Origin: an uncultured Thermodesulfobacteriota bacterium
GTDB lineage: Bacteria; Desulfobacterota; JBBIRW01
NCBI GenBank assembly: GCA_964505185.1
Contig: CAZDGM010000002.1
Span: 72,597-136,596, forward strand
Direction of reading: 5' to 3'
DNA length: 64,000 nucleotides
Below are positions 1,504 to 55,541 of the stretch, piece by piece; the first letter of the stretch is position 1, and every line of letters begins with the position of its first letter. The position numbers and the translations under genes were made by a program. The notes beneath the pieces were generated by a model, which had not been told where the DNA came from, did not search any database, and was given only the letters and a program-made list of their open reading frames with translations.

Positions 1504-1508
1504 CTCTT

Positions 1509-4998: not shown

Positions 4999-5003
4999 GC
5001 TCC

Positions 5004-6380: not shown

Positions 6381-6395
6381 AATTAACTCTGTTAA

Positions 6396-11591: not shown

Positions 11592-11619
11592 CTCTTTCCT
11601 CCTAAACCTATAAAATCTC

Positions 11620-12324: not shown

Positions 12325-12351
12325 ATTCCATTTTTTCTATCAGAGCTTATT

Positions 12352-14967: not shown

Positions 14968-14975
14968 TGAGAACT

Positions 14976-23408: not shown

Positions 23409-24320
23409 TTAATGTATGCCAAATGGCCGGCTAAGATAATACACATTTATAAATCCTGCTATCCCTGAATCCTTTAAATAATCACTAAAAGATGATTTTC
23501 TGAAGAATAGATCCAGTATTGAAAATTTCCTTGATGGGTATATAACGTATGGCTCACCCTTTATTCCCGCAAGGGAGCTGGCGATCTTTATTGCATCATT
23601 AAGATCCCCCAGATCATCAATCAGCCCAATCTCTTTTGCCCTTCTGCCCGAAAAAAACCTTCCGTCAGCTATTTCCATAACCTTTTCAAGTTCAATTTTT
23701 CTCGATTCAGAAACTGCAGCCACAAACTGGGAGTGGATATCATCAATGACCTCCTGAACAAGCTTCCTTTCATCCTCGGACATATCTCTGAAAGGGGAAC
23801 CAACATCCTTGTATCTTCCGCTTTTTATCACATAACCCTTGAGACCAAGTTTGTTAAGAAGTTCCTCAAAATTTATAAATTGTGCAATCACACCTATGCT
23901 TCCCGTTATAGTTCCAGGATTTGCAACAATTCTATCTGAAGCACATGCAATGTAATAACCCCCAGATGTTGCAACAGCGCCCATGGATGTAACGACCTTC
24001 TTATTTTTTTCCTTTAATTTAAGGATCGCATTATAAATCTCCTGAGCTGCCGCAACCCCTCCACCAGGAGACTCAATTCTCAATACGATTGCCTTAACAT
24101 AAGGATCGGATCCATACCTCTCCAGTTCCTTCATAATCTCCCTTGATGAAGCGATAATACCACTTATCTCCACAACAGCAACCCTGTCACGAAAAGTCGA
24201 TAATCCACCGATGGTGAAAAATGTTATTATGAAAACAATAATTAAGAATGAGAGTAGAACACCTAACATTATAAAAAATGCATTTTTAAGAAATTTATAT
24301 CTTTCCTCAACCATTCTCAT
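23409..24320 (-). CDS. sppA: Signal peptide peptidase SppA (36K type, S49)
   Basis: 303 aa with an N-terminal TM and S49 protease core (GGGVAAAQEI, GAVATSGGYYIA). Confidence 0.8.
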   Translation of the reverse strand: MRMVEERYKFLKNAFFIMLGVLLSFLIIVFIITFFTIGGLSTFRDRVAVVEISGIIASSREIMKELERYGSDPYVKAIVLRIESPGGGVAAAQEIYNAILKLKEKNKKVVTSMGAVATSGGYYIACASDRIVANPGTITGSIGVIAQFINFEELLNKLGLKGYVIKSGRYKDVGSPFRDMSEDERKLVQEVIDDIHSQFVAAVSESRKIELEKVMEIADGRFFSGRRAKEIGLIDDLGDLNDAIKIASSLAGIKGEPYVIYPSRKFSILDLFFRKSSFSDYLKDSGIAGFINVYYLSRPFGIH

Positions 24321-38932: not shown

Positions 38933-40090
38933 TCAGACTATTATCCTTTTTTCTTTAAGTCGGGTGATTTCATTGCCACTGAACCCGAGTTCCATCATTA
39001 TTGATTCCGTATCGGAGTAAGGACTGCAGGGTTTAAGTTGATCACCCTCCTCATGGGGAATAAATCTCAATGGAATCCCCAGAAATTTCTTCCCATCTGA
39101 TTCCTCTATTATTTCAGCAAAATTTGCTTTTATAAATTTGTATGCCTCATCCATAGAAAAAACAGGCTCCATACATGCGTCCACATCACGGAATATCTCC
39201 TCCCATTCTTTCCTCGTTTTTGTTGAGATAATCCGAGAAATTATAGTTCTTAACCCTTGCTGATCCTCGCAGTACTGGGCATCAATCAGATCCTCCCTCC
39301 CTACTGCCCTGCAAAAGTTATCCCAGAATTTCCTCTCAAGGGATCCCATAGATATAAATTTACCATCTTTTGTTTTGTATATATTGTAACATGCAAGCCC
39401 ACCTGACAGTGGAATCCCTTTCTCTGGAGACCATCCATAATTCAGAAATGCATAATAATAATTTTGCATGAGGGAGAGGATGGAGCCATACATGGAGAGA
39501 TCTATATACCTTCCCTTTCCGGATATCCTGGATTCCAGAAGAGATGCAAGAATAGCTATTGATGCCCAGAATCCTGCCGCAAGGTCAGCCATCTGGACCG
39601 GAGGAGGCGTTTCTTTATCGAAGGTTGAAAGGAAGAGATGGAGCATTCCAGAAAGTGCCATATAGTTTATATCATGGTCACCCCTCATAGAGTAATTTCC
39701 ACTCTGTCCGTATCCTGTAATGGAGCAGTAGACAAGGGCTAGATTCAAATCCTTCACCCTCTCATAATCAAACCCAAGTCTCTCCATAACACCTGGCCTG
39801 AATTGTTCAACAAGCACAGAGGCAGTTTTTATAAGCCTTATAAATATCTCCTTACCTTCCCTTTCCTTAAGATTGAGCCCGATGCTCCTCTTCCCCCTGT
39901 TCAGCGCACTGTAGAGTGTATCATCACCGTCATAAACCGGATTTATAAACTGCGAGATCTCTATCCCACCTATTTGCTCAACCCTTATAACATCAGCTCC
40001 AAGGTCTGAAAGAATCATTGTACAGAATGGACCAGGAATATATCTGGTGAGATCTATTACCTTTATTCCATGAAGAAGCTTTTCCTTCAT
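38933..40090 (-). CDS. Family III CoA-transferase (CaiB/BaiF/Frc family)
   Basis: 385 aa; N-terminal GIKVIDLTRYIPGPFCTMILSDLGADVIRVE is the CoA_transf_3 signature. Confidence 0.8.
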   Translation of the reverse strand: MKEKLLHGIKVIDLTRYIPGPFCTMILSDLGADVIRVEQIGGIEISQFINPVYDGDDTLYSALNRGKRSIGLNLKEREGKEIFIRLIKTASVLVEQFRPGVMERLGFDYERVKDLNLALVYCSITGYGQSGNYSMRGDHDINYMALSGMLHLFLSTFDKETPPPVQMADLAAGFWASIAILASLLESRISGKGRYIDLSMYGSILSLMQNYYYAFLNYGWSPEKGIPLSGGLACYNIYKTKDGKFISMGSLERKFWDNFCRAVGREDLIDAQYCEDQQGLRTIISRIISTKTRKEWEEIFRDVDACMEPVFSMDEAYKFIKANFAEIIEESDGKKFLGIPLRFIPHEEGDQLKPCSPYSDTESIMMELGFSGNEITRLKEKRIIV

Positions 40091-40094
40091 GAAC

Positions 40095-40430
40095 TCACCC
40101 CTTCATTGCAGAGATTATTTTTAATGCAAGAAGGATATCGCCCTCCACAATCAATTTCCCATTGAAAAATGCACTTTTATAGGAAAGCTCCCCTTTTAAG
40201 ATCTTCTCAAAATCTCCTGAATCAATACTGATTGTTACATCAGCATCATCAGCCTTATTCTTATATATTGCTGTATCCTCTCCATCTATTGAGATGGTAA
40301 ATGAATCCGCATTTTTACCTGTGATCATTATCTGGATCACTGCCTTGAGCTCTTTTATCAAATGGCCCTTTTCTTTGAATCTTTCCATCATCATTTTCTT
40401 TAATATATTGTATGTATTCCCTTCATCCAT
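40095..40430 (-). CDS. SCP2 sterol-carrier-like domain protein
   Basis: 111 aa ending ...FFNGKLIVEGDILLALKI, typical of SCP-2. Confidence 0.6.
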   Translation of the reverse strand: MDEGNTYNILKKMMMERFKEKGHLIKELKAVIQIMITGKNADSFTISIDGEDTAIYKNKADDADVTISIDSGDFEKILKGELSYKSAFFNGKLIVEGDILLALKIISAMKG

Positions 40431-40549
40431 TATCCATTCCTTAAAAATTTTAAATTATCCCCGATATTACACCATAATATCTCGTGATTAGCAATTGAAA
40501 AAAATCGGCAAAATGATAAAATTAATTAAAATAAGCCTGTTTTATTTTA

Positions 40550-42436
40550 ATGGCGAAGTTATTGCCCTTTCCTATAAAGAGCATAAGGTTCAAGGTCCTC
40601 TCTTCTGTAGTAATTGTGCTTACCATCGTAATGGGAATTATATTTTCCATACAGTACTACCAGTATCGCAAGGAACTTATAGAAAGGCTTGGCCTTTCAT
40701 CCACACCACTTAGCGATGTTATAAAGGGAAGTCTCAAGCATGCAATGCAAACAAGAAATATGGAAGCCCTGGAGCAGATTATAAGAAATGTGAGTATGCA
40801 AAAAGGGGTTGAAAAGGTATTTATATTTGACAAAAAAGGCGTGATAAAGGTCTCTCCGGATGAGCAGGACATAGGGAAAAGGGTCGAGATTAATGATAGA
40901 ACCTGCCAGATATGCCACAAGTATGAGCCGGATAATAGAAACAAGACTGTTATCTTTACGGTCTCAAAAAATAAAAGGATATTCAGAAATGTAAATCCTA
41001 TCCTAAATGAACAGGAGTGTCATCGCTGCCACAATCCTCTTGACAAAATAAATGGCGTTCTTATCAGTGATTTCTCAATGGCTGAGGTGGACAGGGAACT
41101 TTCCAGCAAAATGAGGCAGATGATTATCTCCCTCATAATAACACTGACATTAACGATAATAACAATTACCTTTCTGATGAACAGAATGGTAATTAACAAG
41201 CTTGAGAAAGTTGCCTTAGCAACAAAATTACTCAGTAAAGGGAATCTTGAATTCAAGGTTGAGATGAAGAGTGAAGATGAGATAGGGGAACTTGCGGATT
41301 CATTCAATCAGATGGTTGAAAATCTTAAGAAGATGAAAGAACTCAGAGAGAGAAAAGAGTTACTCGAAAATGTTTTATCAAATATAAAGGAATCAATAAT
41401 TATAATTGACCATGAAGGAAGGATTATTTCGATCAGCAAGACCGCTGAATCGATGTTTGGCTACAGATCAGATAACATACTTGGATCCCATTATACCGAA
41501 CTTGGCGAGGAAAGGATGAGGGCATGGGCAAAGGCCTCAAGAAAAATAACAGTTTGCGAAGAGGTCCAGATGAAAGCGGGGGAAAGATTCTTTCCCGTAT
41601 CCTTTACCCTTACACCACTAATGGATGAGCAAAACGAAATAGTGGGATTTATTGAAATAACCAGGGATCTCACGGAAGAAAAAACAAAAGAACTCCTTCA
41701 GAAACAGTTGATACACTCTGAGAGACTTGCTGCTATGGGAAGACTTGCCGCAGGTGTTGCTCATGAATTGAATAATCCACTTGGTAATGCACTTTTATAT
41801 GCGAGAATCCTTCTTGAAGAAATCACACCTGAAAGTCCATATTACAGAAATGCCCAGAAGATTGTTGATAATATCATGAGATGTAAAAAGATAGTTTCAA
41901 ACCTCCTTGATTACACACGTCAATCCGAAGTTCATATGGAATTGAACGATATAAACAGGATTATCAAAAAGGCTGTGAAGATGCTCTCCAATGAGCTTTC
42001 CATAAATAATATTGAATGTGAGCTTGTCCTTTCGGAAGATCTTCCTCCGGTGCTTTGTGATAGAAACCAGATTCAGCAGGTCTTCATAAATCTGATACAG
42101 AATGCAATTGAAGCCGTTGGAAATGATGGAAAAATAAAGATCTTTTCGGCAACCTCCGACAATGATAGTAAAACATTGCTATTTGGTGTATGGGACAATG
42201 GGCCAGGGATCGATCCCGATATTATTATAAGAATTTTTGAGCCTTTCTATACAACAAAAGAAAAGGGGACAGGACTTGGTCTATCCATATGTGAAGGAAT
42301 AATCAAGAGGCATGGAGGAAAGATACGGGTTGAAAGTCCTCCCTCTAAAAACCCGTTCAAGAATGGGATTATTCCTTCAGAAGGAACACTTTTTGTTGTG
42401 GAGCTTCCTTATGTTAAACATAATATGGTTTGCTAA
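40550..42436 (+). CDS. Sensor histidine kinase with periplasmic di-heme c-type sensor domain, HAMP, PAS, HisKA, HATPase_c
   Basis: 628 aa; TM1 around residues 16-36 and TM2 around 190-212. The periplasmic loop holds CQICH (40904-40918) and CHRCH (41018-41032). HAMP (LSKGNLEFKVEMKSEDEIGELADSFNQM), PAS, H-box AHELNNPLGN and C-terminal ATPase motifs follow. Confidence 0.8.
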   Translation: MAKLLPFPIKSIRFKVLSSVVIVLTIVMGIIFSIQYYQYRKELIERLGLSSTPLSDVIKGSLKHAMQTRNMEALEQIIRNVSMQKGVEKVFIFDKKGVIKVSPDEQDIGKRVEINDRTCQICHKYEPDNRNKTVIFTVSKNKRIFRNVNPILNEQECHRCHNPLDKINGVLISDFSMAEVDRELSSKMRQMIISLIITLTLTIITITFLMNRMVINKLEKVALATKLLSKGNLEFKVEMKSEDEIGELADSFNQMVENLKKMKELRERKELLENVLSNIKESIIIIDHEGRIISISKTAESMFGYRSDNILGSHYTELGEERMRAWAKASRKITVCEEVQMKAGERFFPVSFTLTPLMDEQNEIVGFIEITRDLTEEKTKELLQKQLIHSERLAAMGRLAAGVAHELNNPLGNALLYARILLEEITPESPYYRNAQKIVDNIMRCKKIVSNLLDYTRQSEVHMELNDINRIIKKAVKMLSNELSINNIECELVLSEDLPPVLCDRNQIQQVFINLIQNAIEAVGNDGKIKIFSATSDNDSKTLLFGVWDNGPGIDPDIIIRIFEPFYTTKEKGTGLGLSICEGIIKRHGGKIRVESPPSKNPFKNGIIPSEGTLFVVELPYVKHNMVC

Positions 42437-42467
42437 ATATGGATTAGAATAAACAAGGAGGGAAAGA

Positions 42468-43850
42468 TTGTCGGAGATCTTTCATGGAAGAAAAATTCTA
42501 ATCGTTGATGATGAAGAGGATACACTCGAGGCATGTTCCCATATACTGGGAAAACTTGGGATTCACGTGCAGACCGCAAATAATGCCACTCAAGCACTAC
42601 GACTGATTCGCGAAAATTCCTTTGACATTGTAATTGCTGACATAAAAATGCCCGGAATGGATGGTATTGAGCTTTTGAAGAATCTTAAAAAAATCGATCC
42701 ATTAACAAGGGTCATAATGATAACTGGATATGCGACCATTGAAAGCGCAGTTGAATCAATGAAGGCAGGTGCATTTGATTATATTTCCAAACCATTTACA
42801 ACAGATCAGCTAAGGGCTGCTGTAAAAAGGGCCCTAGAAAATCTGGATCTTATTACTGAGAACAGGGAGTTAAGGGAGAGACTCAGAGGGGTGGAAAGAG
42901 AGCTAACTTTTATTGCTTTCAGTGAATCCATGAAAAGGATTCAGGAGCTTATAAAAAAGGTTGCAGAAACAGATTCAACAGTTCTCATACTTGGAGAAAC
43001 GGGAACAGGGAAAGATCTCGTTGCAAAGCAGATCCATCGAATGAGCAACCGGGCAAATGAACCATTCATTACTGTCAACTGTGCAGCAATCCCTGCAACA
43101 CTTCTTGAAAGTGAGCTGTTCGGACATGAGAAGGGAGCTTTTACAGGCGCGAACAGAAAGAAAAAGGGGCTTTTTGAGCTTGCTGATGGCGGAACCATCT
43201 TTCTCGATGAGATAGGGGATCTCAGTATTGACCTTCAGGGAAAACTTCTCAGGGCTATTGAGGAAAAGGCCATCATGCCCCTTGGAAGCGAAAGAAAAAT
43301 ACATATTGATGTGAGGATAATTGCAGCAACAAACAGAAACCTTATTGATGCAATCAGGCAATCAAAATTCAGGGAAGATCTCTACTATCGACTCAATGTT
43401 TTTCCTATATATCTGCCTCCATTGAGAGAAAGAAGGGATGATATAATACCCCTGGCCTCACATTTCCTTGAGAGATATAACCGCAAGCATGGCAAGCAGA
43501 TATATGGGTTTAAGAAGGAAGCCCAGGAGGCTCTACTCTCTTATAGCTGGCCAGGCAATGTAAGGGAGCTTGAGAATTTTATCGAAAGGGCGGTTATACT
43601 TGAAGAATCTGAAACAATAGGTCTCGATTCATTGGGTGGTGATCTTATAAGATATATATCTTCCTCAAATCCCCCGTATCCACTTTCATATAGGGAAAGG
43701 GATATGGAGGAATGGCCTTCCCTCGATCATCTTGAAAAAACCTATATATTGGAGGTCCTCAAGGCAACAAAATGGAACAGGAAGAAGGCTTCAAGGATCC
43801 TTGGTGTAAGCACTGTAACCCTCTGGAGAAAGATCAGGGATAAAAAATAA
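42468..43850 (+). CDS. Sigma-54-dependent response regulator (NtrC family)
   Basis: 460 aa with REC (ILIVDDEED...IADIKMPGMDG), AAA+ (GETGTGKD, GAFTGA) and a C-terminal HTH. Confidence 0.9.
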   Translation: MSEIFHGRKILIVDDEEDTLEACSHILGKLGIHVQTANNATQALRLIRENSFDIVIADIKMPGMDGIELLKNLKKIDPLTRVIMITGYATIESAVESMKAGAFDYISKPFTTDQLRAAVKRALENLDLITENRELRERLRGVERELTFIAFSESMKRIQELIKKVAETDSTVLILGETGTGKDLVAKQIHRMSNRANEPFITVNCAAIPATLLESELFGHEKGAFTGANRKKKGLFELADGGTIFLDEIGDLSIDLQGKLLRAIEEKAIMPLGSERKIHIDVRIIAATNRNLIDAIRQSKFREDLYYRLNVFPIYLPPLRERRDDIIPLASHFLERYNRKHGKQIYGFKKEAQEALLSYSWPGNVRELENFIERAVILEESETIGLDSLGGDLIRYISSSNPPYPLSYRERDMEEWPSLDHLEKTYILEVLKATKWNRKKASRILGVSTVTLWRKIRDKK

Positions 43851-43991
43851 TTTCATTTTGTAATCAATCCTTCTTAATGATCCCTTTCAAAATGTAATCT
43901 AAAGGGGATCAATCATTGAACCCATAAAGGCCCGCATAAAATTTTCCCTAATATTTCAACAGAATAACATTTCAATTCTCATAAAAACCCA

Positions 43992-44007
43992 TGGCATGAA
44001 GATTGCG
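43992..44007 (+). promoter_or_regulatory. Sigma-54 promoter (-24/-12) for the cytochrome/molybdoenzyme operon
   Basis: TGGCAT-GAAGA-TTGCG has exact GG-N10-GC spacing and is a near-consensus match to TGGCAC-N5-TTGCA. It lies about 30-45 nt upstream of the first operon gene and right after an NtrC-family activator gene. Confidence 0.55.
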
Positions 44008-44037
44008 ATTCTTTCTGGTAAAACCCCTTTTTAATGG

Positions 44038-44415
44038 ATGCTTGTAAATATGAAAGTATTTGGAAGAAGGATAATGATAGTTGAGGATGTAGCGGAAAGA
44101 AGGGAATTAATCTGCAGATTCTTTACTTCCCACGGCTATGAGGTATACCCCACAGATAACGTTGTAAAAGCATTGATGGCATTCCTGGAGGAACCTTTTG
44201 ACATCATTGTTATCAAGGGAGATCTTCCGCTTCTCTCTGGTCCGGAGGCTGCCTTAATTATGAGAAAACTCCATCCAATGGCAAAAATTTTTCTAACGAT
44301 GGATGAGAATTCCGAAAAAGGTCTCATTGTTAAAAAGGAGGAAATCGAATACTTTCCATATGTCCCTGAACCCGTGGACATGAATTCTCTATCAAGCATT
44401 CTTGAGGAAATATAG
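44038..44415 (+). CDS. Receiver-domain-like protein, probable pseudo-receiver
   Basis: 125 aa with a CheY-like fold pattern (RIMIVEDV...FDIIVIKGDLPLLSG). A Lys sits at the position expected for the phospho-acceptor Asp. The start may instead be the ATG at 44050. Confidence 0.55.
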   Translation: MLVNMKVFGRRIMIVEDVAERRELICRFFTSHGYEVYPTDNVVKALMAFLEEPFDIIVIKGDLPLLSGPEAALIMRKLHPMAKIFLTMDENSEKGLIVKKEEIEYFPYVPEPVDMNSLSSILEEI

Positions 44416-44437
44416 GGGAAAAGAAAAGGAGAAATCT

Positions 44438-45571
44438 ATGAAGAAAGGAAAAATGTTAGCAATGGCAATTATTCTTGCATCATTATATACTTCGTCATCT
44501 CATGCCGGTAATAATTCATCAACTATTCCTGAATTCACAAATAGTTTTGAATGCGGAAAATGCCATATCGATGTTTATAGAAACTGGACTGTTTCCATGC
44601 ATGCACTATCTTTACAGAATCCTATCTTCAGGCTCGCTTATCAGGAAGCCTATACAAAAACATCGGGAAAAGCAAAATTCCTGTGCCTTGGGTGCCATTC
44701 ACCAACAGTTTCTATAACCGGTGATTTTGAACTGGTGAAAGAGATAAGCAGAGAAGGAGTGACATGTGATTTCTGCCATTCAATAAAGAATTATATAGGT
44801 AAAAAGAAGAGATATATCGTCGAGCCAGGGCCTGTCAAAAAGGCTCCCGTGAGAAGATCGTCTTCTGTATCTCATAAAGTTGAGTTTTCTCCGCTTCACA
44901 GTTCGTCAGAAATATGTGCGGGATGTCATGATGGAAAAAATCTAAAAGGCCTCCCTGTTAGAACTACATATACTGAATGGCTTAAATCCAGATATTCTAA
45001 AGACGGAATAACATGTCAGCACTGCCACATGAAGCGAACAATAGTTAAGTACAGAACTGCTTCAGATAGTAGATCTGCTTCAAAGGCTGTAAGAAGTCAT
45101 TATTTCCTAAGAACAATTGATGATATCAAGAAAGCTGCAATTGTCGAGATAAAAAACATAGAAAGGAAAGACAATAAGATGATTGTTTCAATTTCAATCG
45201 CAAACATCGGGGCCGGTCATTTCATTCCAACAGGAAGCCCTTCAAAAAAACTCATCCTGAGGGTCTCAGCAAAAAATCAGATGAATTATTATACCATCCA
45301 GGAAAAAACTTTTGGCATGAAGGTAATCGATGAAAAGGGAATAGAGCTCCATACGGAACCCGAGATTATGTTGAGAGGGTCAGCCATAAAAATTGATGAG
45401 AGAATACCTCCACAAGGAAAAGTTATTGAACTATTGGAATTCGATTTTCCAAAGGATCAATATGCTGTTGTCACTGCTCAGCTTATATATCTGTACAGAC
45501 CACTGATTCTGGATGAAACTTCAATGAGGGTGGAAATCGCATCTGACCAAAAAATTTCTCCAGCAAGGTAA
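44438..45571 (+). CDS. Periplasmic pentaheme c-type cytochrome
   Basis: An AAGGAG RBS precedes the ATG at 44438. Signal peptide MKKGKMLAMAIILASLYTSSSHA. Five CxxCH motifs (CGKCH, CLGCH, CDFCH, CAGCH, CQHCH). The C-terminal ~150 aa has no hemes and looks beta-rich. Confidence 0.75.
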   Translation: MKKGKMLAMAIILASLYTSSSHAGNNSSTIPEFTNSFECGKCHIDVYRNWTVSMHALSLQNPIFRLAYQEAYTKTSGKAKFLCLGCHSPTVSITGDFELVKEISREGVTCDFCHSIKNYIGKKKRYIVEPGPVKKAPVRRSSSVSHKVEFSPLHSSSEICAGCHDGKNLKGLPVRTTYTEWLKSRYSKDGITCQHCHMKRTIVKYRTASDSRSASKAVRSHYFLRTIDDIKKAAIVEIKNIERKDNKMIVSISIANIGAGHFIPTGSPSKKLILRVSAKNQMNYYTIQEKTFGMKVIDEKGIELHTEPEIMLRGSAIKIDERIPPQGKVIELLEFDFPKDQYAVVTAQLIYLYRPLILDETSMRVEIASDQKISPAR

Positions 45572-45575
45572 CCAG

Positions 45576-46160
45576 ATGAAAAAAGCAAAAAGATATGCAA
45601 TGCTCATCGATCTCAGAAGATGTATTGGCTGCCACAGCTGCTCAGTTTCATGCAAGGCAGAAAATCAGGTTCCATTGGGCGTATGGAGAACATGGGTAAA
45701 ACAGGTTGAAAAGGGAATTTATCCAAATGTAATCAGAATATTTCTTCCACTTCTATGTAATAATTGTGAACGTCCTGTTTGCAAAACTGTATGTCCTGTA
45801 AAGGCAACATATCAAAGGGAAGATGGCATTGTTATGATAGATCCCCATCGATGTATTGGGTGTAAATATTGTATGGCCGCATGCCCATATAATGTCAGAT
45901 ATGTTGATCCTATTAAGAAAATTGTCCAAAAGTGCACATGGTGCTATAGAAGGGTGGATGCTGGTGATCTTCCTGCATGCGTAAAAACATGCGTTGGAGG
46001 CGCGAGAATATTTGGTGACATAAACGATCCTGATAGCGAAATTTTCAGGCTTATCTCGATAAATTCGGTTCAGGTAATAAAACCCGAGAAGGGAACCTCA
46101 CCGATGGTCTTCTACATAGATCTCGATATTACCGCAGTAGAGGCGAGGGAGAATGTATGA
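45576..46160 (+). CDS. 4x[4Fe-4S] electron-transfer subunit of a molybdoenzyme complex (PsrB/NrfC/DmsB family)
   Basis: 194 aa with four Cys clusters: CIGCHSCSVSC, CNNCERPVCKTVCP, CIGCKYCMAACP and CTWCY...C. Confidence 0.85.
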   Translation: MKKAKRYAMLIDLRRCIGCHSCSVSCKAENQVPLGVWRTWVKQVEKGIYPNVIRIFLPLLCNNCERPVCKTVCPVKATYQREDGIVMIDPHRCIGCKYCMAACPYNVRYVDPIKKIVQKCTWCYRRVDAGDLPACVKTCVGGARIFGDINDPDSEIFRLISINSVQVIKPEKGTSPMVFYIDLDITAVEARENV

Positions 46161-47059
46161 ATGAAGCAGTAAGAGTTGTATACAATATTCATCATGAAAT
46201 TCCACTTGGAGTATTGATAGCAAACTATTTTTATTTTACCGGGTTGAGTGCCGGATCCTTTATTCTCTCAACCCTTGCATACGTATTCGGCATAAATAAA
46301 TACAAGCCTATAGCAAAAACAAGTGTAATACTTGCAACTTTACTTCTTATTCTTGCACCAATAAATCTCCTTATTGACCTTGAACAGCCATACAGGTTCT
46401 GGACACTCTTTTATTACATAAATCCGACATCGGCAATATCATGGGGCTCATTTTTACTAACCCTTTATCCATTGAATTGTATCATTTATGGATTTTTCAT
46501 GTTCAAGGGAAATGAAAAGATGACAAAATTATTTGGTATCCTGGGAATACCCCTTGCTATCTCTGTTCACGGATATACAGGATTTATACTTGCCCTTGCC
46601 AGAGCAAGAGATCTCTGGCATACACCCCTGATGCCAGTTCTTTTTCTCGTTTCAGCTATGGTATCAGGAATAGCGCTTACTATCCTCGTTATCTATGTTA
46701 AGGACAGATTCTTTAGCCCATTAATGAAAGCCAATGAAGAGTTAATCATAGATCTTGGAAAGATACTCGCTTTTTCAATAATCCTTGATCTTTCTCTTGT
46801 GTTTGCAGACATTATTGTTATGTTTAATTCAAATCCAGAGGCATTACAAATTGTTGATAGGGTTCTTTTCGGTAAATTTAAAAATCTATTTCTCGGCATC
46901 GAAATTACTCTTGGATCACTGATACCACTTCTCATACTTCTTTCACCATTAAGAAAAAATATAACGCTTGTAATAATTTCTTCACTTCTCGTTATGATTG
47001 GAATATTTGCCATGAGATATGTTGTTGTTGTTGGAGGACAGATCATTCCACAGATATAA
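46157..47059 (+). CDS. NrfD/PsrC-family integral membrane quinone-interacting subunit
   Basis: 300 aa with about 8 predicted TM helices. Its start overlaps the FeS gene stop (ATGA). Confidence 0.75.
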   Translation: MNEAVRVVYNIHHEIPLGVLIANYFYFTGLSAGSFILSTLAYVFGINKYKPIAKTSVILATLLLILAPINLLIDLEQPYRFWTLFYYINPTSAISWGSFLLTLYPLNCIIYGFFMFKGNEKMTKLFGILGIPLAISVHGYTGFILALARARDLWHTPLMPVLFLVSAMVSGIALTILVIYVKDRFFSPLMKANEELIIDLGKILAFSIILDLSLVFADIIVMFNSNPEALQIVDRVLFGKFKNLFLGIEITLGSLIPLLILLSPLRKNITLVIISSLLVMIGIFAMRYVVVVGGQIIPQI

Positions 47060-47071
47060 AGGAGGTAAAAT

Positions 47072-48019
47072 ATGAATGGATCAAAAAATATTTTTTATGA
47101 CTTTCAACTTAAAAAAACAAATCTCGGAACATTTCGAGGAAACCCCATTTCCATAGTTATTTTAATTGTCTGCATCAGTTTGAGTATTTTAACAGCTTTA
47201 AATTATAAATTCATACTTTCATCAGCTATTATAGTCATTGGTATACTTTCTCTTCTAAGTATCAAAATAGCAGCACACTGGGAAAGGGCTGTTGTTTTAA
47301 GGCTCGGCAGATTTATTGGATTCAGGGGGCCAGGTATCTTCTTCCTCATCCCCTTCATCGATACCATTCCATACTGGATTGATCTGAGGATTATAGCAAC
47401 ACCCTTTAAAGCAGAACAAACTTTAACCAAGGATAATGTTCCTGTTGATGTTGATGCCGTATGTTTCTGGAAGGTTGTGAATCCTGAAAAAGCAGCGCTC
47501 GAGGTTGCAGACTACCATGAAGTTATAAGCTGGGCTTCTCAAACTGCATTGAGGGATGTCATAGGTAAAAGTCTTCTTTCGGAAATGCTTGTTGGGAGGG
47601 AAATGATCGATCTACAGCTAAAAGAATTGATAAAGGAGAGAACAGAAATGTGGGGAATTTATGTTGATTCTGTTGAAATAAGGGATGTGAATATCCCAGT
47701 ACCTCTTCAGGATGCCATGTCCATACAGGCGCAGGCTGAAAGGGAAAGGCAGGCAAGACTTATCCTTGGTGAATCTGAAACACAGATTGCTCAGAAATTC
47801 GCAGAGGCTGCAAAGGCTTATATAAATAATCCCACAGCGTTGCATCTCAGGGCAATGAACATGCTTTACGAAGGTTTCAAAGATAAAGGAACACTTGTTA
47901 TCGTTCCAAGCACAGCCGTTGAAACAATGGGATTGGGTGCGATCCTTGGCGCCTCATCACTTACGAAAATATCGATACCATCTTCGGACACAGAACCTGT
48001 CTCAAAGGGTTCTCAGTAA
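47072..48019 (+). CDS. SPFH/band-7 (stomatin/prohibitin-like) membrane protein
   Basis: 315 aa with an N-terminal TM followed by an SPFH domain (ERAVVLRLGRFIGFRGPGIFFLIPFID...) and a coiled-coil region. Confidence 0.8.
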   Translation: MNGSKNIFYDFQLKKTNLGTFRGNPISIVILIVCISLSILTALNYKFILSSAIIVIGILSLLSIKIAAHWERAVVLRLGRFIGFRGPGIFFLIPFIDTIPYWIDLRIIATPFKAEQTLTKDNVPVDVDAVCFWKVVNPEKAALEVADYHEVISWASQTALRDVIGKSLLSEMLVGREMIDLQLKELIKERTEMWGIYVDSVEIRDVNIPVPLQDAMSIQAQAERERQARLILGESETQIAQKFAEAAKAYINNPTALHLRAMNMLYEGFKDKGTLVIVPSTAVETMGLGAILGASSLTKISIPSSDTEPVSKGSQ

Positions 48020-48037
48020 TAAAGGGAGTGTAATAAC

Positions 48038-50236
48038 ATGGCTGATATTACTCGAAGGGATTTCATCAAAGCTGGTTTGATATTCCTCTCCACATCAGCC
48101 CTAATTCCTCCCGTCTTTGCTCGTGCAACTGATAGTAAAAATTTAGACACTAACAAAGACAGTGGGACCTTGTTTGACACAGCAATACCGACAACCTGCC
48201 TTATTTGCGGAGCAGGCTGCGGAATCATAGCATATAAAAGGCATGGGAGGGTGGTAAAAATAGATGGAAACCCCTTGCACCCCACGAATAGAGGAAAGAT
48301 ATGTGGTAAGGGACATGCGGGGCTTAATATACTTTATGATCCTGAAAGGGTTCTTTCCCCGCTCATGAGAAAGGGACCAAGGGGATCTGGTAACTGGAGG
48401 GTCTGTACATGGAGCGAAATAATGGATGGGATATGTGAAAGGATTCAATCAGCGCTCAAAAATGGTGATGAGATTCTCTTTCTTCAAGGATCTGACAGAA
48501 TGGGAAACCTTGTGGAAGATATATCCAGGAAGCTCGGTAGAATTAAATTCCTCGCATCGAAAGAACAAAGGGGTATTAACAAAAGGATGGCATATCTGAC
48601 GACTTTTGATACAGATATTGTTATACCTGATATTGAGCAGAGTACCTTTATCTTAAACTTTGGCGCAAATCCATTTGAGGCAAATTATATGACTCCTCTG
48701 GCACAAAGAATTATCAATGCAAAAATAGAAAGAGGTGCAAGATTAATAACAATTGATCCGAGACTCTCAAACACAGCGGCGAAAAGTGATCTCTGGATTC
48801 CCATAAAACCCGGCACTGATGGAATTGTTTCTCTCTCAATGTCATTTATGATCATGAATAATGATCTTCATGACCGTGAATTTATAAGGAATTGCACTAA
48901 TTGCGATGAAAAGCATTTGCTGGCACATCTTTCCAAATACACACCAGAATTAGCTGAAAGGGTTTCCGGTGTTGATAGAAATCTAATCAGAAAAATTGCA
49001 TTTCAATTTGCAACTTCTGAATCACCAATTGCTATTTCAGGAAGGGGAGTTTATCAGCATCTAAATGGTATCGAAGCGGAGAGATCAGTCCTTCTTCTCA
49101 ACATAATCTGTGGAAGAATAAATAAAAAAGGAGGATTGTTTATTTTTGAAAGGAGCAGGAATAATAGAGAAACGATTTTTAGTAAAAAAGGTTCTTCCGG
49201 AAATGAATCATTTCTCGATATTATAGAGGATGCCAGAAGAAAAGGAAAAAAATATCCTGTTATTATAATCCATCACTCAAATCCAGTTTATTCCCAAAAT
49301 GAAATAAATTTAATTTCGGAAACACTCAGGGATGAGAAACTCTTCCCTTTCATCATTGTATCCGACACCCATATAACGGAAACAGCCATGTTTGCCGATG
49401 TAGTATTGCCCGATACATCATATCTTGAATGCTGGGGCATAACGGAGCGTCCGGTATTTGGTAAAGATCCATATATCTCATTATCACAGCCAGTTTCTGA
49501 TCCTCCTGGAGAGGCTATTCCATTTGAGGATGTTTTCATTCAGATTGCAAACAGGGTTGGTATCAGCACAGATTTTAAAGACTCAAGGGAATTTATCAAT
49601 AGAAAAATAGGGATGCTACTTAGAAATGAAAAGGCAAAGTCTGAATTGTATGAAAATGGATTTCTTTACTTAGCGAATAGGGAAAACCTGCTGAGAGTTT
49701 CAACTGTTTCGAAAAAAATAGAGATCCATTCAGAGAAAATGAAGGAGTTTGGTCTTGAACCATTTCCTTCATTTAAGTCACCTTCTGAAAAAAAACCGGG
49801 ATGGTTTTATCTTATTACATATAAGATAAACACACATTCACACTCAAGAACACAAAACTGTAAATGGCTATCTGAGATATTTCATACAAATCCGCTGCTT
49901 ATTAATCCATTGACCGCTGAAAAACTCGGAATAAAAGAGGGAGATACGGTTAAATTGAAAACAGAATTGGGCTCTGTATCGGTAAAAGTACAGTTTACAG
50001 AGGGCATCCATCCTGATGCCCTTGCTATTGCAATGCATGCAGGTCATTGGGCTTATGGAAGGGTCGCAAGGGCAATACCCTTCAAAAGCAACGACCCGGA
50101 TACCATGTTGATTTGGTGGACAGCAAAAGGAAATGGGATAAATCCCAATAGAATACTGCATTCAACGCATCCCTCAGGTGGTGAACATCCTTTCCTCGAT
50201 GCGCTTGTTTACCTGGATGTATCCAGCGGAGGATAA
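48038..50236 (+). CDS. Tat-exported molybdopterin (Mo/W-bisPGD) oxidoreductase catalytic subunit, Psr/Phs-size class
   Basis: 732 aa with twin-arginine signal MADITRRDFIKAG...VFA, the FS0 cluster motif CLICGAGCG...C(x27) and molybdopterin oxidoreductase and molydop_binding regions. Confidence 0.85.
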   Translation: MADITRRDFIKAGLIFLSTSALIPPVFARATDSKNLDTNKDSGTLFDTAIPTTCLICGAGCGIIAYKRHGRVVKIDGNPLHPTNRGKICGKGHAGLNILYDPERVLSPLMRKGPRGSGNWRVCTWSEIMDGICERIQSALKNGDEILFLQGSDRMGNLVEDISRKLGRIKFLASKEQRGINKRMAYLTTFDTDIVIPDIEQSTFILNFGANPFEANYMTPLAQRIINAKIERGARLITIDPRLSNTAAKSDLWIPIKPGTDGIVSLSMSFMIMNNDLHDREFIRNCTNCDEKHLLAHLSKYTPELAERVSGVDRNLIRKIAFQFATSESPIAISGRGVYQHLNGIEAERSVLLLNIICGRINKKGGLFIFERSRNNRETIFSKKGSSGNESFLDIIEDARRKGKKYPVIIIHHSNPVYSQNEINLISETLRDEKLFPFIIVSDTHITETAMFADVVLPDTSYLECWGITERPVFGKDPYISLSQPVSDPPGEAIPFEDVFIQIANRVGISTDFKDSREFINRKIGMLLRNEKAKSELYENGFLYLANRENLLRVSTVSKKIEIHSEKMKEFGLEPFPSFKSPSEKKPGWFYLITYKINTHSHSRTQNCKWLSEIFHTNPLLINPLTAEKLGIKEGDTVKLKTELGSVSVKVQFTEGIHPDALAIAMHAGHWAYGRVARAIPFKSNDPDTMLIWWTAKGNGINPNRILHSTHPSGGEHPFLDALVYLDVSSGG

Positions 50237-50237
50237 A

Positions 50238-50753
50238 ATGAGAAGGATCTTAGCCATACCCATCGAGATACTCCTTATGATATTTGTAGCCGGAATAGTA
50301 GTAGGATTTTACCCTTTTCTTGGGTTGATAAAATATTCAACATCCTCTTCCTCACAGTGTATGAAATGCCACAAAAGCGGATACCTCAGCATCCCCTCTC
50401 AATCAAATGCCCATTCTAATTCGGCAGATTGCATTTCATGTCATGCAACGAAAAATTCCATTATACCACTTGATTTTCCGAAGGCCTTTTCCGCTGACAA
50501 AAATATTGTTAGCAAAAATTGCACGAAATGCCACAGAAATTCTCCAGCTCTTATTGAGAAAAAAGAGAATGGAATACTTCTGAAAATACCTCATAAAAAA
50601 CATATCGAGTTCAGTGATGGACAATGCACACTTTGCCACCGCAGGATTGCACATAAATGGTCAGAAAAGCAAACCCATCGTCCAGATATGGGAGACTGTT
50701 TTTCCTGTCATTCGCGAAATGAAGACTGCACAACCTGCCATCCCAATGGATAA
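50238..50753 (+). CDS. Membrane-anchored hexaheme c-type cytochrome
   Basis: GGAGG lies 7 nt upstream of the ATG at 50238 (1 nt after the upstream stop). N-terminal TM helix and six CxxCH motifs in about 171 aa (CMKCH, CISCH, CTKCH, CTLCH, CFSCH, CTTCH). Confidence 0.75.
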   Translation: MRRILAIPIEILLMIFVAGIVVGFYPFLGLIKYSTSSSSQCMKCHKSGYLSIPSQSNAHSNSADCISCHATKNSIIPLDFPKAFSADKNIVSKNCTKCHRNSPALIEKKENGILLKIPHKKHIEFSDGQCTLCHRRIAHKWSEKQTHRPDMGDCFSCHSRNEDCTTCHPNG

Positions 50754-50757
50754 TAGA

Positions 50758-51861
50758 TTAAGCTCCTCTTATCTTAAATCGCTGATCAAGCTTTTTTAAC
50801 TTCTCCACTATACCTCCATATTCCAGCTCGCTGAATGGAAGCATTGATGGTCCTGAAAAGCCCTGTCTTCTCATCTCGATCGCTTTTTCAGCAACCTTTA
50901 TTCTTATATAATCCCAGAAAGGCTGATCGAAACAATCAGCAGGCTCGGAGAGCTTACCATTATGAACACAGAATGCAAGACAACTTACCACAGGCGGACC
51001 ATCAAAATATGAAACAGAGCTTTCTATTTTAACAGGCATAAGAGGTCCTGTATGACTCCCCCTCATAAATCCCGCAACATAATGACCTATTGCAAAGGGT
51101 GAAAGGACTTCACCTGTTGCTGGAAAAATACCTTGTGTCCTTACAATCATAACAGGGTCATCCTTGCCAACATATTTACCAGCAATGTTCCTCAGCCTCG
51201 TTGTGCTGACTGCAACAGCTGGCTCCTTTCCATCTTTTGTATATATCGCTTCAATAACATATCTCTCATTATCCCTTATAAGGGCAGCAATATCATAGAG
51301 CTCTTCAGGTGCATAGAGTTCTATTATTCTATCACCTTCCGTATGTTCAACATCCATTATTACGAATTTATAGCCATCTGTTTTCGGATTTAGAATCAAT
51401 CCAGAGCTAAACATGGGATCTGCAAATCCAAGATACAGTGGAAGATTGTATGCGCCCGGATCAGTTTTGTCCGCAGCAAACAATAGAAAAGGCTCGCTCG
51501 GTCTTTCCACAAATTCCATTTCGGCAACTGCCGGCCCCATCCCTTTTATATTCCCTGAAAAGGCATCCTTCAGTAAATCCTGACCCGCACCATAAAGTCC
51601 TTCCTCTTTCGCAGTCTCTGTTGCCTCACGAAATGCAAACCATGCGAGTTCATGAACTCTTTCACTACCTGTGCCATTGGTATGGGAAAAAAGGATGCAG
51701 ATATCATCACCTGTAAAGGTAACAAAATAGTCTATGATTATCCCGCGCGATGCTGATTGTATGTAATTTTCCACCCTCTTTAAAACCTTCTTGCTCGGTT
51801 TTATATGACCTCCTATACTTCCTATATCAGCCTTGATAACACTTAATGTTGTCTTCATATG
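50758..51861 (-). CDS. Bifunctional fructose-1,6-bisphosphate aldolase/phosphatase (archaeal-type class V FBPase)
   Basis: MKTTLSVIKADIGSIGGH..., the conserved N-terminus of FBP aldolase/phosphatase, about 367 aa. Start taken at an internal Met of the tracked ORF. Confidence 0.8.
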   Translation of the reverse strand, partial: HMKTTLSVIKADIGSIGGHIKPSKKVLKRVENYIQSASRGIIIDYFVTFTGDDICILFSHTNGTGSERVHELAWFAFREATETAKEEGLYGAGQDLLKDAFSGNIKGMGPAVAEMEFVERPSEPFLLFAADKTDPGAYNLPLYLGFADPMFSSGLILNPKTDGYKFVIMDVEHTEGDRIIELYAPEELYDIAALIRDNERYVIEAIYTKDGKEPAVAVSTTRLRNIAGKYVGKDDPVMIVRTQGIFPATGEVLSPFAIGHYVAGFMRGSHTGPLMPVKIESSVSYFDGPPVVSCLAFCVHNGKLSEPADCFDQPFWDYIRIKVAEKAIEMRRQGFSGPSMLPFSELEYGGIVEKLKKLDQRFKIRGA

Positions 51862-51874
51862 CACCTCCTCTTCC

Positions 51875-52828
51875 TTAAGAATGATATATTTCATTATACC
51901 ACTTAATGAACCTCTTTAAACCTTCTTCAATTGAAACTCTGGGTTTAAAGCCTATAAGTCTTTCGGCCTTCCTTATATCTGCATAGGTTATCTTCACATC
52001 CCCTCTCTGTTCAGGGTAATTAATTACCTTTGCCTTTTTTCCCAGTGCCTTCTCTATATATTTTATAAGATCAATTAATTTAACAGGATGTGAATTCCCG
52101 ATATTTAATATATTAACACCACCCCCTATCTTATCAATACATGATAGAACTCCTTCAACAACATCATCAATGTATGTATAGTCTCTCATGCTATTACCAT
52201 CACCATATACAGGAACATCCTCCCCTTCATCTATGAGACGGGTAAATTTATGAATGGCCATTTCCGGTCTCTGCCTTGGTCCATAAACAGTGAAGAACCT
52301 CAGGATGATAATGTCAAGTCCATATAATTTATTATAAAGTGAGCATATTATCTCTCCCGATAGTTTTGTACATCCATATGGAGATACAGGAAGAAGATTT
52401 TTTTCTTCCTCAGAAAATGGAAGCGCCGCATTCTCACCGTATACGGAGGATGAGGATGCAAATATGAATTTCTCAATGTTACTTTTTCTCGCAATCTCAA
52501 GTAAGTTTATCGTTCCTCCTATATTTACATCAGCATAAAGTGATGGGTTTTCAATAGAGGGTCTAACACCAGCCTTTGCTGCCATATGTATGACGTGCCT
52601 TATAGGGTATGTTTTAAATACCTCCTGAAGTATCTTTTGATCCCTTATATCTGCCTCTATAAAAAGGAAGTTTCTATTTGAAATTGCGCCCCGAATATTT
52701 TCAAGTTTCATATGCTTTGGGTAATAGGGATCGAGGTTATCAATACATATAACCTTTTCCCCTCTGTCCAGCAGTGCATCCACTATCTTTGATCCAATGA
52801 ATCCGGCACCACCTGTAACTAAAAACAT
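51875..52828 (-). CDS. NAD-dependent nucleotide-sugar epimerase/dehydratase (SDR, extended)
   Basis: 317 aa with TGGAGFIGS and YxxxK (YGCTK). Confidence 0.8.
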   Translation of the reverse strand: MFLVTGGAGFIGSKIVDALLDRGEKVICIDNLDPYYPKHMKLENIRGAISNRNFLFIEADIRDQKILQEVFKTYPIRHVIHMAAKAGVRPSIENPSLYADVNIGGTINLLEIARKSNIEKFIFASSSSVYGENAALPFSEEEKNLLPVSPYGCTKLSGEIICSLYNKLYGLDIIILRFFTVYGPRQRPEMAIHKFTRLIDEGEDVPVYGDGNSMRDYTYIDDVVEGVLSCIDKIGGGVNILNIGNSHPVKLIDLIKYIEKALGKKAKVINYPEQRGDVKITYADIRKAERLIGFKPRVSIEEGLKRFIKWYNEIYHS

Positions 52829-52966: not shown

Positions 52967-53038
52967 GCGGGAGTAGTTCAGGGGTAGAACACCACCTTGC
53001 CAAGGTGGGAGTCGCGGGTTCAAATCCCGTCTCCCGCT
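52967..53038 (+). tRNA. tRNA-Gly (anticodon GCC)
   Basis: Manual cloverleaf: acceptor GCGGGAG/CTCCCGC, D-arm GTTC-AGGGGTA-GAAC, anticodon arm CCACC-TTGCCAA-GGTGG, T-arm GCGGG-TTCAAAT-CCCGT, discriminator T. CCA is not encoded. Confidence 0.85.
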
Positions 53039-53063
53039 CTATTTTTTTACCCCTCCAGATCAT

Positions 53064-53135
53064 GGCGGCATAGCCAAGCGGAAAGGCAGAGGTCTGCAAA
53101 ACCTCCATTCCCCGGTTCGAATCCGGGTGCCGCCT
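53064..53135 (+). tRNA. tRNA-Cys (anticodon GCA)
   Basis: Acceptor GGCGGCA/TGCCGCC, anticodon loop CTGCAAA, T-loop TTCGAAT, discriminator T. It lies 25 nt after tRNA-Gly. Confidence 0.85.
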
Positions 53136-55340: not shown

Positions 55341-55427
55341 CTTTATGGAACCGCCCTCTCCAAAATTGTGGAAATGTTTATCAAAAAAAATTATAATAAA
55401 AAATAACTAACTTGTCATTATATTTCT

Positions 55428-55512
55428 GCCTGGGTGGCGGAATAGGCAGACGCAAGGGACTTAAAATCCCTTGGAGGTTCCCTCCGTGCGGGTTCGATTC
55501 CCGCCCCAGGCA
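55428..55512 (+). tRNA. tRNA-Leu (anticodon TAA)
   Basis: 85 nt. Acceptor GCCTGGG/CCCAGGC, anticodon loop CTTAAAA, long variable arm GGAGG-TTC-CCTCC, T-loop TTCGATT, discriminator A. Confidence 0.85.
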
Positions 55513-55541
55513 TTAAAAATATTAAAACTGTTTACATTTAA

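Follow-up and report, generated by a model that had tools for sequence, protein, structure and literature searches.

The 64,000-nt stretch analysed here (the window; contig CAZDGM010000002.1 of an uncultured Thermodesulfobacteriota bacterium) carries a seven-gene respiratory operon that encodes a subunit resembling the molybdoenzyme PsrA (A), an iron-sulfur (FeS) subunit of the PsrB type (B), an NrfD/PsrC-type membrane subunit (C), two multiheme cytochromes c, a stomatin-type protein and a pseudo-receiver. Subunit A has lost the residue that ligates molybdenum (Mo), and the complex is therefore probably an electron shuttle between quinone and cytochromes and probably not a reductase of sulfur or metal species. 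We read the operon, with middling confidence, as encoding a Psr-derived quinone:cytochrome c oxidoreductase of the type represented by Qrc and alternative complex III (ACIII), which would make it the third such lineage. Qrc and ACIII are the known complexes in which a MopB-family subunit without cofactor goes together with an NrfCD module and a cytochrome of five or six hemes (PMC6303296, PMC13059093).

Subunit A (48038-50236, + strand; 732 aa) contains three molybdopterin-oxidoreductase Pfam domains, a twin-arginine translocation (Tat) motif (TRRDFIK) and the Cys motif of the FS0 cluster (C54-x2-C57-x3-C61-x27-C89). Its best sequence match in the PDB is PsrA of T. thermophilus (E=8.6e-61). 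In a HMMER alignment Arg178 of A lies opposite Cys173, the Mo ligand of PsrA (aligned segments: SVSLCTAPREVA in PsrA, SKEQRGINKRMA in A). MAFFT alignments, one with 120 homologues from databases and one with 87 from a genome scan, gave the same ligand column. In control proteins aligned alongside, this column is occupied by Cys for PsrA and E. coli NapA, by Ser for DmsA and by Ala for NuoG, which lacks the cofactor. The initial annotation had called A the catalytic subunit, with Cys, Ser or Asp considered as the ligand; since the position carries Arg178, which is none of these, the label is unsupported.

The genome scan covered one genome per species and yielded at least 80 loci, nearly all of them in metagenome-assembled genomes (MAGs); 84 related loci were compared in all, and individual loci are cited here as L001, L002 and so on. 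Among the 87 homologues the ligand Cys is kept in 40 and absent from 47, and the residue replacing it varies. Proteins of the Cys class show the motif NH-TS[IV]CE-SSKK, are mostly 830-960 aa long and have B and C as neighbours and few cytochromes; those of the Cys-less class measure 730-790 aa, and 37 of the 47 carry a class-specific Asn three residues further on (N181 in the window). When 1.84 billion representatives at 50% identity were searched in full with HMMER, 4914 proteins were retrieved at E<=1e-30, and in the 130 best full-length representatives the ligand Cys is absent 73 times. The Cys-less family is large and widespread, with members in Desulfobacterota, Nitrospirota, Nitrospinota, Aminicenantes, Armatimonadota, Bacteroidota and other groups, and in these searches it is almost confined to uncultured bacteria and MAGs. 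When the 144 columns that are at least 85% conserved in the Cys class were followed into the Cys-less class, 95 were found retained and 14 lost, the latter including Cys178, His174, Arg152, Arg336, Arg465 and Arg604; class-specific gains are N181, P212, S684 and T689. Most Cys-less proteins form one block of a neighbour-joining tree and the others a small second block, a crude tree that fits one loss of the Cys as well as several.

The two classes also differ in their genomic surroundings. Cytochrome pairing was scored only at loci with enough downstream sequence, a downstream partner being a gene with at least three CxxCH motifs on the same strand at a distance of <=1.6 kb. A multiheme cytochrome lies directly downstream of A at 35 of 37 Cys-less loci and at 2 of 36 Cys loci (Fisher p=5e-16), and upstream cytochromes are present at 14/33 and 2/26 loci, respectively (p=0.003), in tests which, like the comparison of evolutionary rates, ignore phylogeny.

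Evolutionary rates separate the classes as well. Only one relative of A, that of L001, reaches 72% identity, the remainder staying at or below about 42%. Between the window and L001, B is 95%, C 90% and the stomatin 93% identical, and A, the pentaheme and the hexaheme cytochrome are 72, 73 and 71% identical; against L002 the values are 72, 65 and 69% for the first three proteins and 40, 35 and 39% for the last three. Averaged over locus pairs whose B subunits are 55-65% identical, mean identities of A, B and C are 53, 59 and 30% in the Cys class and 40, 60 and 46% in the Cys-less class, and Cys-less pairs with 75-90% identical B subunits gave 59, 79 and 77%. The Cys class, with similar conservation of A and B and far less of C, shows the pattern that would be expected of a catalytic complex iron-sulfur molybdoenzyme (CISM). 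In the Cys-less class, unlike the Cys class, A evolves faster than B and C, and this inversion marks the FeS/NrfD dimer as the constrained core of the Cys-less complexes. The corresponding FeS/NrfD module has been described by Pereira's group as the functional heart of Qrc (PMC6303296, PMC13059093).

Subunit B (45576-46160, + strand; 194 aa) matches PsrB in the PDB (2vpw_B, E=2.5e-58). Its 16 Cys are arranged as four [4Fe-4S] motifs, it has no signal peptide of its own, and it is the most conserved subunit of the operon. The NCBIfam models TtrB and QrcC reach 248 and 109 bits on B, compared with cutoffs of 416 and 400, and ActB gave a weak match to it (E=5e-22 over 60 residues). Subunit C (46157-47059, + strand; 300 aa) matches Pfam NrfD with 172 bits, has about eight hydrophobic helices according to its hydropathy profile, and scores 50.9 bits with the NCBIfam model QrcD, the cutoff of which is 570. 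Relative to A, C is unusually conserved within the Cys-less class.

Genes were identified with Pfam and NCBIfam profiles and hemes were counted as CxxCH motifs. The seven open reading frames (ORFs) lie closely packed on the + strand, as the initial annotation had them, and the domain identities it had assigned were matched by the profiles. The operon starts with a stand-alone pseudo-receiver (44038-44415; 125 aa), followed by a periplasmic pentaheme cytochrome c (44438-45571), B, C, a stomatin-type SPFH protein (47072-48019; 315 aa), A and a membrane-anchored hexaheme cytochrome c (50238-50753; one N-terminal transmembrane (TM) helix, six CxxCH). The pentaheme ORF extends over 44402-45571, with a likely start at ATG 44438, as called for its L001 homologue; the hexaheme ORF is open from 50178, and its likely start, ATG 50238, lies 1 nt past the stop of A. 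With these starts the successive intergenic gaps are 22, 4, -4, 12, 18 and 1 nt. Five and six CxxCH motifs add up to the 11 c-hemes predicted before, and neither a Rieske nor a cytochrome b gene was found within the 64-kb window, again as predicted. No subunit of the operon reaches an NCBIfam equivalog cutoff, which agrees with the earlier statement that the layout is distinct from psrABC/phsABC, ttrBCA, arrAB, Qrc and ACIII. Together with the two regulator genes upstream, the operon makes up an island of nine + strand genes (40550-50753) in a long run of - strand genes (viewed over 40000-51000), and the sign of the GC skew flips exactly over this island, the GC content being unchanged.

The neighbourhoods of the scanned loci were tabulated from ORF calls and phmmer searches. 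L001 shows an identical nine-gene arrangement, flanks included, and all seven operon genes recur in unchanged order in L002, though its A subunit is only 40% identical; L003 reads receiver-B-C-A-hexaheme. Beyond the full order in L001 and L002, the core of B, C, A and a hexaheme cytochrome (six hemes, 180-220 aa) occurs in about 25 further loci among those listed, from several phyla. This recurrence argues that the arrangement is not due to chance. A 5- or 7-heme cytochrome often precedes the core, and cytochromes with 8-16 hemes sometimes follow it. The scanned loci belong to Desulfobacterota, Nitrospirota, Nitrospinota, Aminicenantes, Armatimonadota, Bacteroidota, Firmicutes-labelled bins, Planctomycetota and Proteobacteria. 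In L004 (JGI 3300031898, 1-16200) a cyt-B-C-A-cyt-cyt-cyt cluster with a Cys-less A is immediately preceded by genes for a Rieske protein and a split cytochrome b; the first cytochrome of the cluster has 9 hemes and the three behind A have 10, 16 and 13, and a sigma-54 regulator and a kinase are encoded downstream. In this locus a much larger cytochrome wire is built on the same core, which suggests extracellular electron transfer.

For the hexaheme cytochrome, an alignment of 20 family members shows six invariant CxxCH motifs and four further invariant His. The best PDB match of the family profile is ActA of ACIII (8k9e_A, E=2e-12; other ActA chains: 6lod_A 2e-10, 6f0k_A 7e-9, 6btm_A 1e-6), and the next is the quinol dehydrogenase NrfH (2j7a_C, E=1e-10), aligned over the TM helix and the hemes. 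The Pfam model Cytochrom_NNT (NapC/NirT) matches 19 of the 20 members, among them the window protein with 25.3 bits (cutoff 24.1). The family differs from NapC, NirT and NrfH in having six hemes instead of four, and the Met of the NrfH motif CxxCHxM is absent. A search with the family profile retrieved metagenome proteins only and no cultured carrier.

The pentaheme cytochrome belongs to the PHC family. Its PDB matches are cytochrome c552 of T. tepidum (5ze8_A, E=3.9e-16) and MccSep (9wt8/9wt9, E about 4e-7), and the NCBIfam model ExtKL scores 79.8 bits, below its cutoff of 250. With these proteins it shares the five-heme core, the PHC fold and a C-terminal non-heme domain in which the conserved loop AGH-x-IP-x-G-x-P is present. 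MccSep is a heme-selenoenzyme with polysulfide reductase activity that requires the selenocysteine (Sec) Sec325 and the heme-ligating Cys239 (bioRxiv 10.1101/2025.11.18.688581). In the window protein Ser stands in the place of Sec325 (PTGSP, compared with PDGUP) and there is no Cys at the position of Cys239 (LPVRTTY, compared with PTQCCTSY). The four members of the subfamily have S/S/T/I at the first site and R/R/R/M at the second, and five His outside the heme motifs are conserved in them. Lacking both Sec325 and Cys239 and having five conserved His, the protein looks like a pure electron carrier.

These data bear on a different view of the operon, in which the pentaheme protein is itself the terminal enzyme, an MccSep-like heme reductase, and the remaining subunits serve as its quinol dehydrogenase. 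Membership in the PHC family is in line with this, and so are the co-transcription of the gene and its place at the head of the structural genes; moreover, MccSep is a proven polysulfide reductase, and its gene lies beside a quinol-oxidising membrane module (bioRxiv 10.1101/2025.11.18.688581; PMC5877670). Still, we consider this explanation improbable, since both essential residues of MccSep are missing at positions that vary in the subfamily, and the five conserved His could make all five hemes bis-His. Most Cys-less loci have a 7-heme upstream cytochrome or none, so that the PHC protein appears as an exchangeable accessory. In Geobacter, extKL adjoins multiheme cytochromes and a quinol module of the Rieske/cytochrome b type (PMC5877670). 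As in the operon, a PHC gene is clustered there with a quinol-oxidising module and other multiheme cytochromes, but the membrane module is Rieske/cytochrome b and not NrfCD with MopB. The Geobacter cluster follows the same principle with another membrane module, and in L004 the two kinds of module occur together.

By sequence, the closest relatives of A and B are the Psr/Phs enzymes (T. thermophilus, 2VPZ), with which the operon shares Tat export, FS0, the four-domain MopB fold, a four-cluster B subunit and an 8-helix anchor. The initial annotation favoured a Mo enzyme acting on a sulfur, selenium, arsenic or metal species. In favour of a quinol-dependent reductase of the Psr/Phs/Ttr type, reducing polysulfide, thiosulfate, tetrathionate, Se or As species with the cytochromes as accessories, A and B score best with PhsA, PsrA, PsrB and TtrB in NCBIfam and the PDB, the NrfD subunit is of the 8-helix type, the order B-C-A is the one written for ttrBCA, and the pentaheme family is linked to sulfur metabolism. 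We nevertheless regard it as very improbable. The Cys that ligates Mo in PsrA and in the MopB enzymes for S, Se and As compounds (PMC10100899) is absent, as are Sec, Ser and Asp at this site and several conserved Arg and His. A scores 318.5 bits with PhsA (cutoff 694), 200 with QrcB (cutoff 440) and 167 with ArrA (cutoff 1600), so that PhsA and ArrA, like TtrB for subunit B, stay far below their curated cutoffs; relatives of both classes reach 270-380 bits with the PhsA model. Rhodanese or other sulfur-transfer genes are not found in the cluster. Further differences from Psr/Phs are the order B-C-A, the practically obligatory pairing of the class with a multiheme, typically hexaheme, cytochrome and the faster evolution of A compared with B and C; the catalytic Sec and Cys of MccSep are absent from the pentaheme cytochrome, too.

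Close in composition is Qrc, which consists of a membrane-associated hexaheme cytochrome, a Tat-type MopB protein without Mo ligand, a four-cluster FeS protein and an NrfD protein and faces the periplasm (PMC6303296, PMC13059093). QrcB is devoid of any redox cofactor (PMC13059093). A MopB subunit without ligand and four-cluster FeS and NrfD subunits are present in the operon as well, and its hexaheme protein, with six CxxCH motifs and an N-terminal TM helix, may correspond to QrcA. On the other hand, the QrcB, QrcC and QrcD models all score far below their cutoffs here, and QrcD has 10 TM helices (408-residue model) where C has about eight in 300 aa. The Qrc genes follow one another as A-B-C-D, those of the operon as cyt5-B-C-stomatin-A-cyt6, and the pentaheme cytochrome, the stomatin and the pseudo-receiver come in addition.

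ACIII, a quinol:cytochrome c oxidoreductase, likewise combines a TM-anchored multiheme cytochrome (ActA, with five hemes instead of the six found here), an FeS module, an NrfD-type quinol site and a cofactor-less MopB-like domain. Its ActB subunit is a fusion of MopB-like and FeS parts which carries a [3Fe-4S] cluster and has lost the Mo-bis(pyranopterin guanine dinucleotide) cofactor (Mo-bisPGD; PMC10100899). In the operon A and B are separate genes, and the 16 Cys of B correspond to four [4Fe-4S] clusters, to which FS0 is added. ACIII also has two 10-helix NrfD proteins (ActC/F), ActD and the monoheme ActE, whereas the operon has a single NrfD protein and no ActD- or ActE-like genes. Wells et al. 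placed ActB with ArrAB (PMC10100899), unlike A, which scores best with PhsA and PsrA. The earlier statement that the operon differs from Qrc and ACIII holds for membership; in function, however, these two are the closest analogues.

Several observations weigh against a Qrc/ACIII-like role of A, in addition to the neglect of phylogeny in the statistics. All four FS0 Cys are kept in 58 of the 73 Cys-less representatives, in contrast to QrcB, which has neither Mo-bisPGD nor FS0. The columns retained in the Cys-less class comprise the Tat Arg pair, the four FS0 Cys and the motifs DPR-S-TA, PGTD and D454-LP-E464. Of an unbiased set of 48 positions that NapA, DmsA and the Cys class have in common, the window protein retains a fraction of 0.94; the mean is 0.90 for Cys-less and 0.95 for Cys-bearing proteins, and NuoG, a very distant and therefore weak control, reaches 0.46. 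An AlphaFold2 model of A (predicted template modelling (TM) score 0.82) has the full four-domain fold, and Foldseek ranked ArrA and PsrA first (TM scores 0.78-0.80; 0.78 for PsrA, 2vpw_A), with no ActB chain among the top 50. The roughly eight helices of C agree with catalytic Psr-type enzymes and not with the ten of QrcD and ActC. Judged by its conserved positions, A appears not to be decayed like the cofactor-less QrcB or the Mo-bisPGD-less ActB, a comparison with QrcB and ActB1 that was made by NCBIfam scores and the NuoG, NapA and DmsA controls. Finally, the near-invariant, class-specific Asn181, which sits one helical turn past the ligand position, suggests a new functional site rather than simple decay.

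Because FS0, the Tat signal and 90-94% of the universal MopB positions are kept, A could still hold an active, ligand-free Mo site. It would then be an enzyme with Mo- or W-bisPGD, the metal being ligand-free or tuned by Asn181, that acts on a periplasmic substrate and uses the cytochromes and the NrfD subunit as two outlets or inlets for electrons. We rate this as possible, though unlikely. The points just listed argue for it: the kept motifs, to which a C-x-K/R-G relay residue can be added, the retention of cofactor-bearing MopB positions, the fold nearest to ArrA and PsrA, and the gains N181, P212, S684 and T689, of which N181 begins a predicted helix (180-190) immediately behind the usual ligand loop. 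What speaks against an active A is its rate of evolution, which is much higher than that of B and C and thereby inverted with respect to the Cys-bearing relatives. In addition, several Arg and His conserved in the Cys class were lost without conserved replacements, and the ligand position tolerates any of various residues. Moreover, the stretch with S684 and T689 (residues 675-698, KSNDPDT...) has a predicted local distance difference test (pLDDT) value below 50 in the model. This stretch may be a partner-binding segment or an active-site lid.

A precedent for an active A is found in AioA and IdrA, lineages listed as having Mo-bisPGD without an amino-acid ligand and passing electrons on to cytochromes (PMC10100899). 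A high-potential [3Fe-4S] cluster is also reported for them (PMC10100899). These enzymes form a clade next to Nap/Fdh, whereas A belongs to a Psr-like lineage with PsrB/PsrC partners. AioA and IdrA work with a Rieske subunit; A, however, has the four FS0 Cys of a [4Fe-4S] type, and the window contains no Rieske gene. The absence of the Mo ligand is the common trait, and the 94% retention of positions suggests that A may contain the cofactor. If so, the Cys-less PsrA-like proteins would be a second independent lineage of ligand-free Mo/W-bisPGD enzymes after Aio/Idr, in which the Asn shapes a new metal site and a periplasmic redox reaction, widespread in uncultured anaerobes, is wired to hexaheme cytochrome and NrfCD; we put this forward tentatively and rather doubt it.

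Four further groups of clusters were compared and set aside: the MOLY cluster of sulfur disproportionators, which has MolyABC with a TorD chaperone and neither cytochromes nor NrfD; the ACIII-like clusters of Planctomycetota and KSB1, with a fused FeS-MopB protein, ActD and CcoP; the psr-like clusters of Hg methylators, which have a rhodanese and the classic CISM architecture; and the DEACI NrfD-Mo clusters, which are reported without detail. NrfD-FeS-multiheme clusters of Methanoperedenaceae, MBNT15 and Melioribacter have been proposed to be menaquinol:cytochrome c oxidoreductases in extracellular electron transfer (PMC7327174, PMC9386147). There, too, an NrfCD-type module is hard-wired to multiheme cytochromes, but a cytochrome replaces the MopB protein, while the operon keeps a MopB-fold subunit with FS0 in its core. 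A complex of B, C, Cys-less A and a hexaheme cytochrome was not found described in the literature, including the surveys of NrfD and MopB proteins (PMC8076601, PMC10100899, PMC6303296), and the MopB survey explicitly discarded sequences without the expected ligand (PMC10100899). As far as the literature was searched, the operon is therefore a coherent and undescribed respiratory unit, as the initial annotation had proposed. Since the complex departs from Psr/Phs, Qrc, ACIII, MccSep and Aio/Idr in features by which each of them is defined, it should not be filed under any of these names.

In the quinone:cytochrome c oxidoreductase that we favour, the PsrB/PsrC-type (NrfCD) module would trade electrons with the menaquinone pool. 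Electrons would travel via all four FeS clusters in B, perhaps with FS0 of A as a further station, to the membrane-anchored hexaheme cytochrome and then to the soluble pentaheme cytochrome, which would give them to, or take them from, a periplasmic or extracellular partner. A would be a remodelled, formerly catalytic subunit, in which the Mo-ligating Cys and residues of the substrate pocket are gone and whose present tasks would mainly be to carry the complex through Tat export and to offer a scaffold and a platform for docking. Within the membrane the complex would probably be stabilised or corralled by a stomatin cage, and the pseudo-receiver might act as a non-phosphorylatable modulator.

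The SPFH protein matches Pfam Band_7 with 114 bits, has two N-terminal hydrophobic helices and resembles human stomatin (9oh9, E=6e-41) in the PDB, where the PH stomatin 3bk6 and QmcA (8z5g) were also matched. Among the loci compared a stomatin gene is present in five Cys-less clusters and in none of the Cys class; in the clusters of the window, L005, L013 and L014 it takes three different positions, between C and A, after A or before B. With 69% identity to L002, where A has 40%, the stomatin is one of the slowest-evolving proteins of the operon. Its embedding ties an SPFH scaffold genetically to one particular respiratory complex, which is a rare case. A reading as a defence system was rejected, the stomatin having no PADLOC match and the receiver only a marginal one. 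The receiver scores 36.9 bits with Pfam Response_reg (cutoff 30.2), and its gene is the first of the operon in L001, L002 and L003. Its phospho-acceptor Asp, expected at the end of beta-3, is replaced by Lys in the window and L001 and by Gln in L002. An Asp next to this position shows no conservation, and the earlier designation as a pseudo-receiver is thus borne out.

Upstream of the operon, a sensor histidine kinase (40550-42436, + strand) and an NtrC-type sigma-54-dependent response regulator (42468-43850, + strand; REC-AAA+-HTH_8) are encoded. The kinase has TM helices at residues 16-34 and 191-209 and, between them, a periplasmic di-heme domain with CxxCH motifs at residues 119 and 157 (CQICH, CHRCH), followed by HAMP-PAS-HisKA-HATPase; the same type of kinase with two CxxCH adjoins the clusters in L001, L005 and L013. 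The regulator matches Sigma54_activat with 246.6 bits and Response_reg with 117 bits, has an HTH_8 domain and is 90% identical in L001. A candidate sigma-54 (-24/-12) promoter, TGGCATGAAGATTGC (43992-44006, + strand), is the sole match with one mismatch to TGGCAC-N5-TTGC in the window and lies 32 nt before the first gene. Such an element also precedes the receiver gene in L001, L002 and L003, and it is in register with that of L001 while the flanks diverge; on this conservation we infer that TGGCATGAAGATTGC functions as a sigma-54 promoter. Of the control by a heme c kinase and a sigma-54 activator that was claimed before, the promoter element is thus supported by its conservation in four loci, and the control itself is plausible: the di-heme kinase and the activator would switch on the promoter, presumably in response to a periplasmic redox signal.

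An inverted repeat, TGATCCCTTT-N14-AAGGGGATCA (43878-43911), lies 80-110 nt upstream of the sigma-54 element. It was considered as an enhancer site of the activator, for which the distance fits, and rejected, as it is not conserved in L001. Scans for sigma-70 promoters and terminators gave counts at chance level and are uninformative on internal promoters.

Qrc and ACIII are textbook cases of the recruitment of a catalytic molybdoenzyme subunit as a non-catalytic part of a quinone:cytochrome c machine, and the operon would add a third lineage, derived from Psr. Since FS0, the Tat signal and nearly all positions of the cofactor pocket are kept, A may stand, in evolutionary terms, midway from a genuine reductase to a coupling site of the Qrc/ACIII type. 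Metagenome pipelines label Cys-less proteins as 'thiosulfate/polysulfide reductase chain A', so the sulfur-cycling potential of such communities is probably overestimated. A pathway that connects the quinone pool with cytochromes of the periplasm or the cell exterior is probably overlooked in the same way.

The Cys-bearing sister class is a second uncharacterised Psr-like family. At L052, L054, L056, L057 and L061, which are from MAGs of Gamma- and Betaproteobacteria, it is represented by A proteins of about 877 aa with B and C, and the kinase and sigma-54 regulator are divergently transcribed. The L054 protein falls below every NCBIfam equivalog cutoff (PhsA 361, cutoff 694).

Ribosomal protein S1 of the window (24320-26038, - strand) is 84-95% identical to proteins in four metagenome records and at most 55% identical otherwise, the next-best relatives being mostly labelled Thermodesulfobacteriota. 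This distance indicates that the source is a deep uncultured lineage. Converging on the operon end, a bifunctional fructose-1,6-bisphosphate aldolase/phosphatase (50758-51894, - strand; NCBIfam 543, cutoff 520) is encoded, and this neighbour is also present in L001. A cluster of the benzoyl-CoA reductase/2-hydroxyacyl-CoA dehydratase type was found within 628-8003 on the - strand, with two BcrAD/BadFG-type ATPases (628-1503 and 1509-2294) and two HGD-D subunits (2309-3613 and 3636-4796); adjoining genes encode another response regulator of the sigma-54 type (5004-6380) and a histidine kinase with GAF and PAS domains (6396-8003). A 540-aa DUF6600 protein is encoded at 21481-23103 (- strand). 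Just downstream of the respiratory cluster, tRNA-Gly(GCC) and tRNA-Cys(GCA) are arranged in tandem (52967-53135, + strand), followed by tRNA-Leu(UAA) at 55427-55513 (+ strand).

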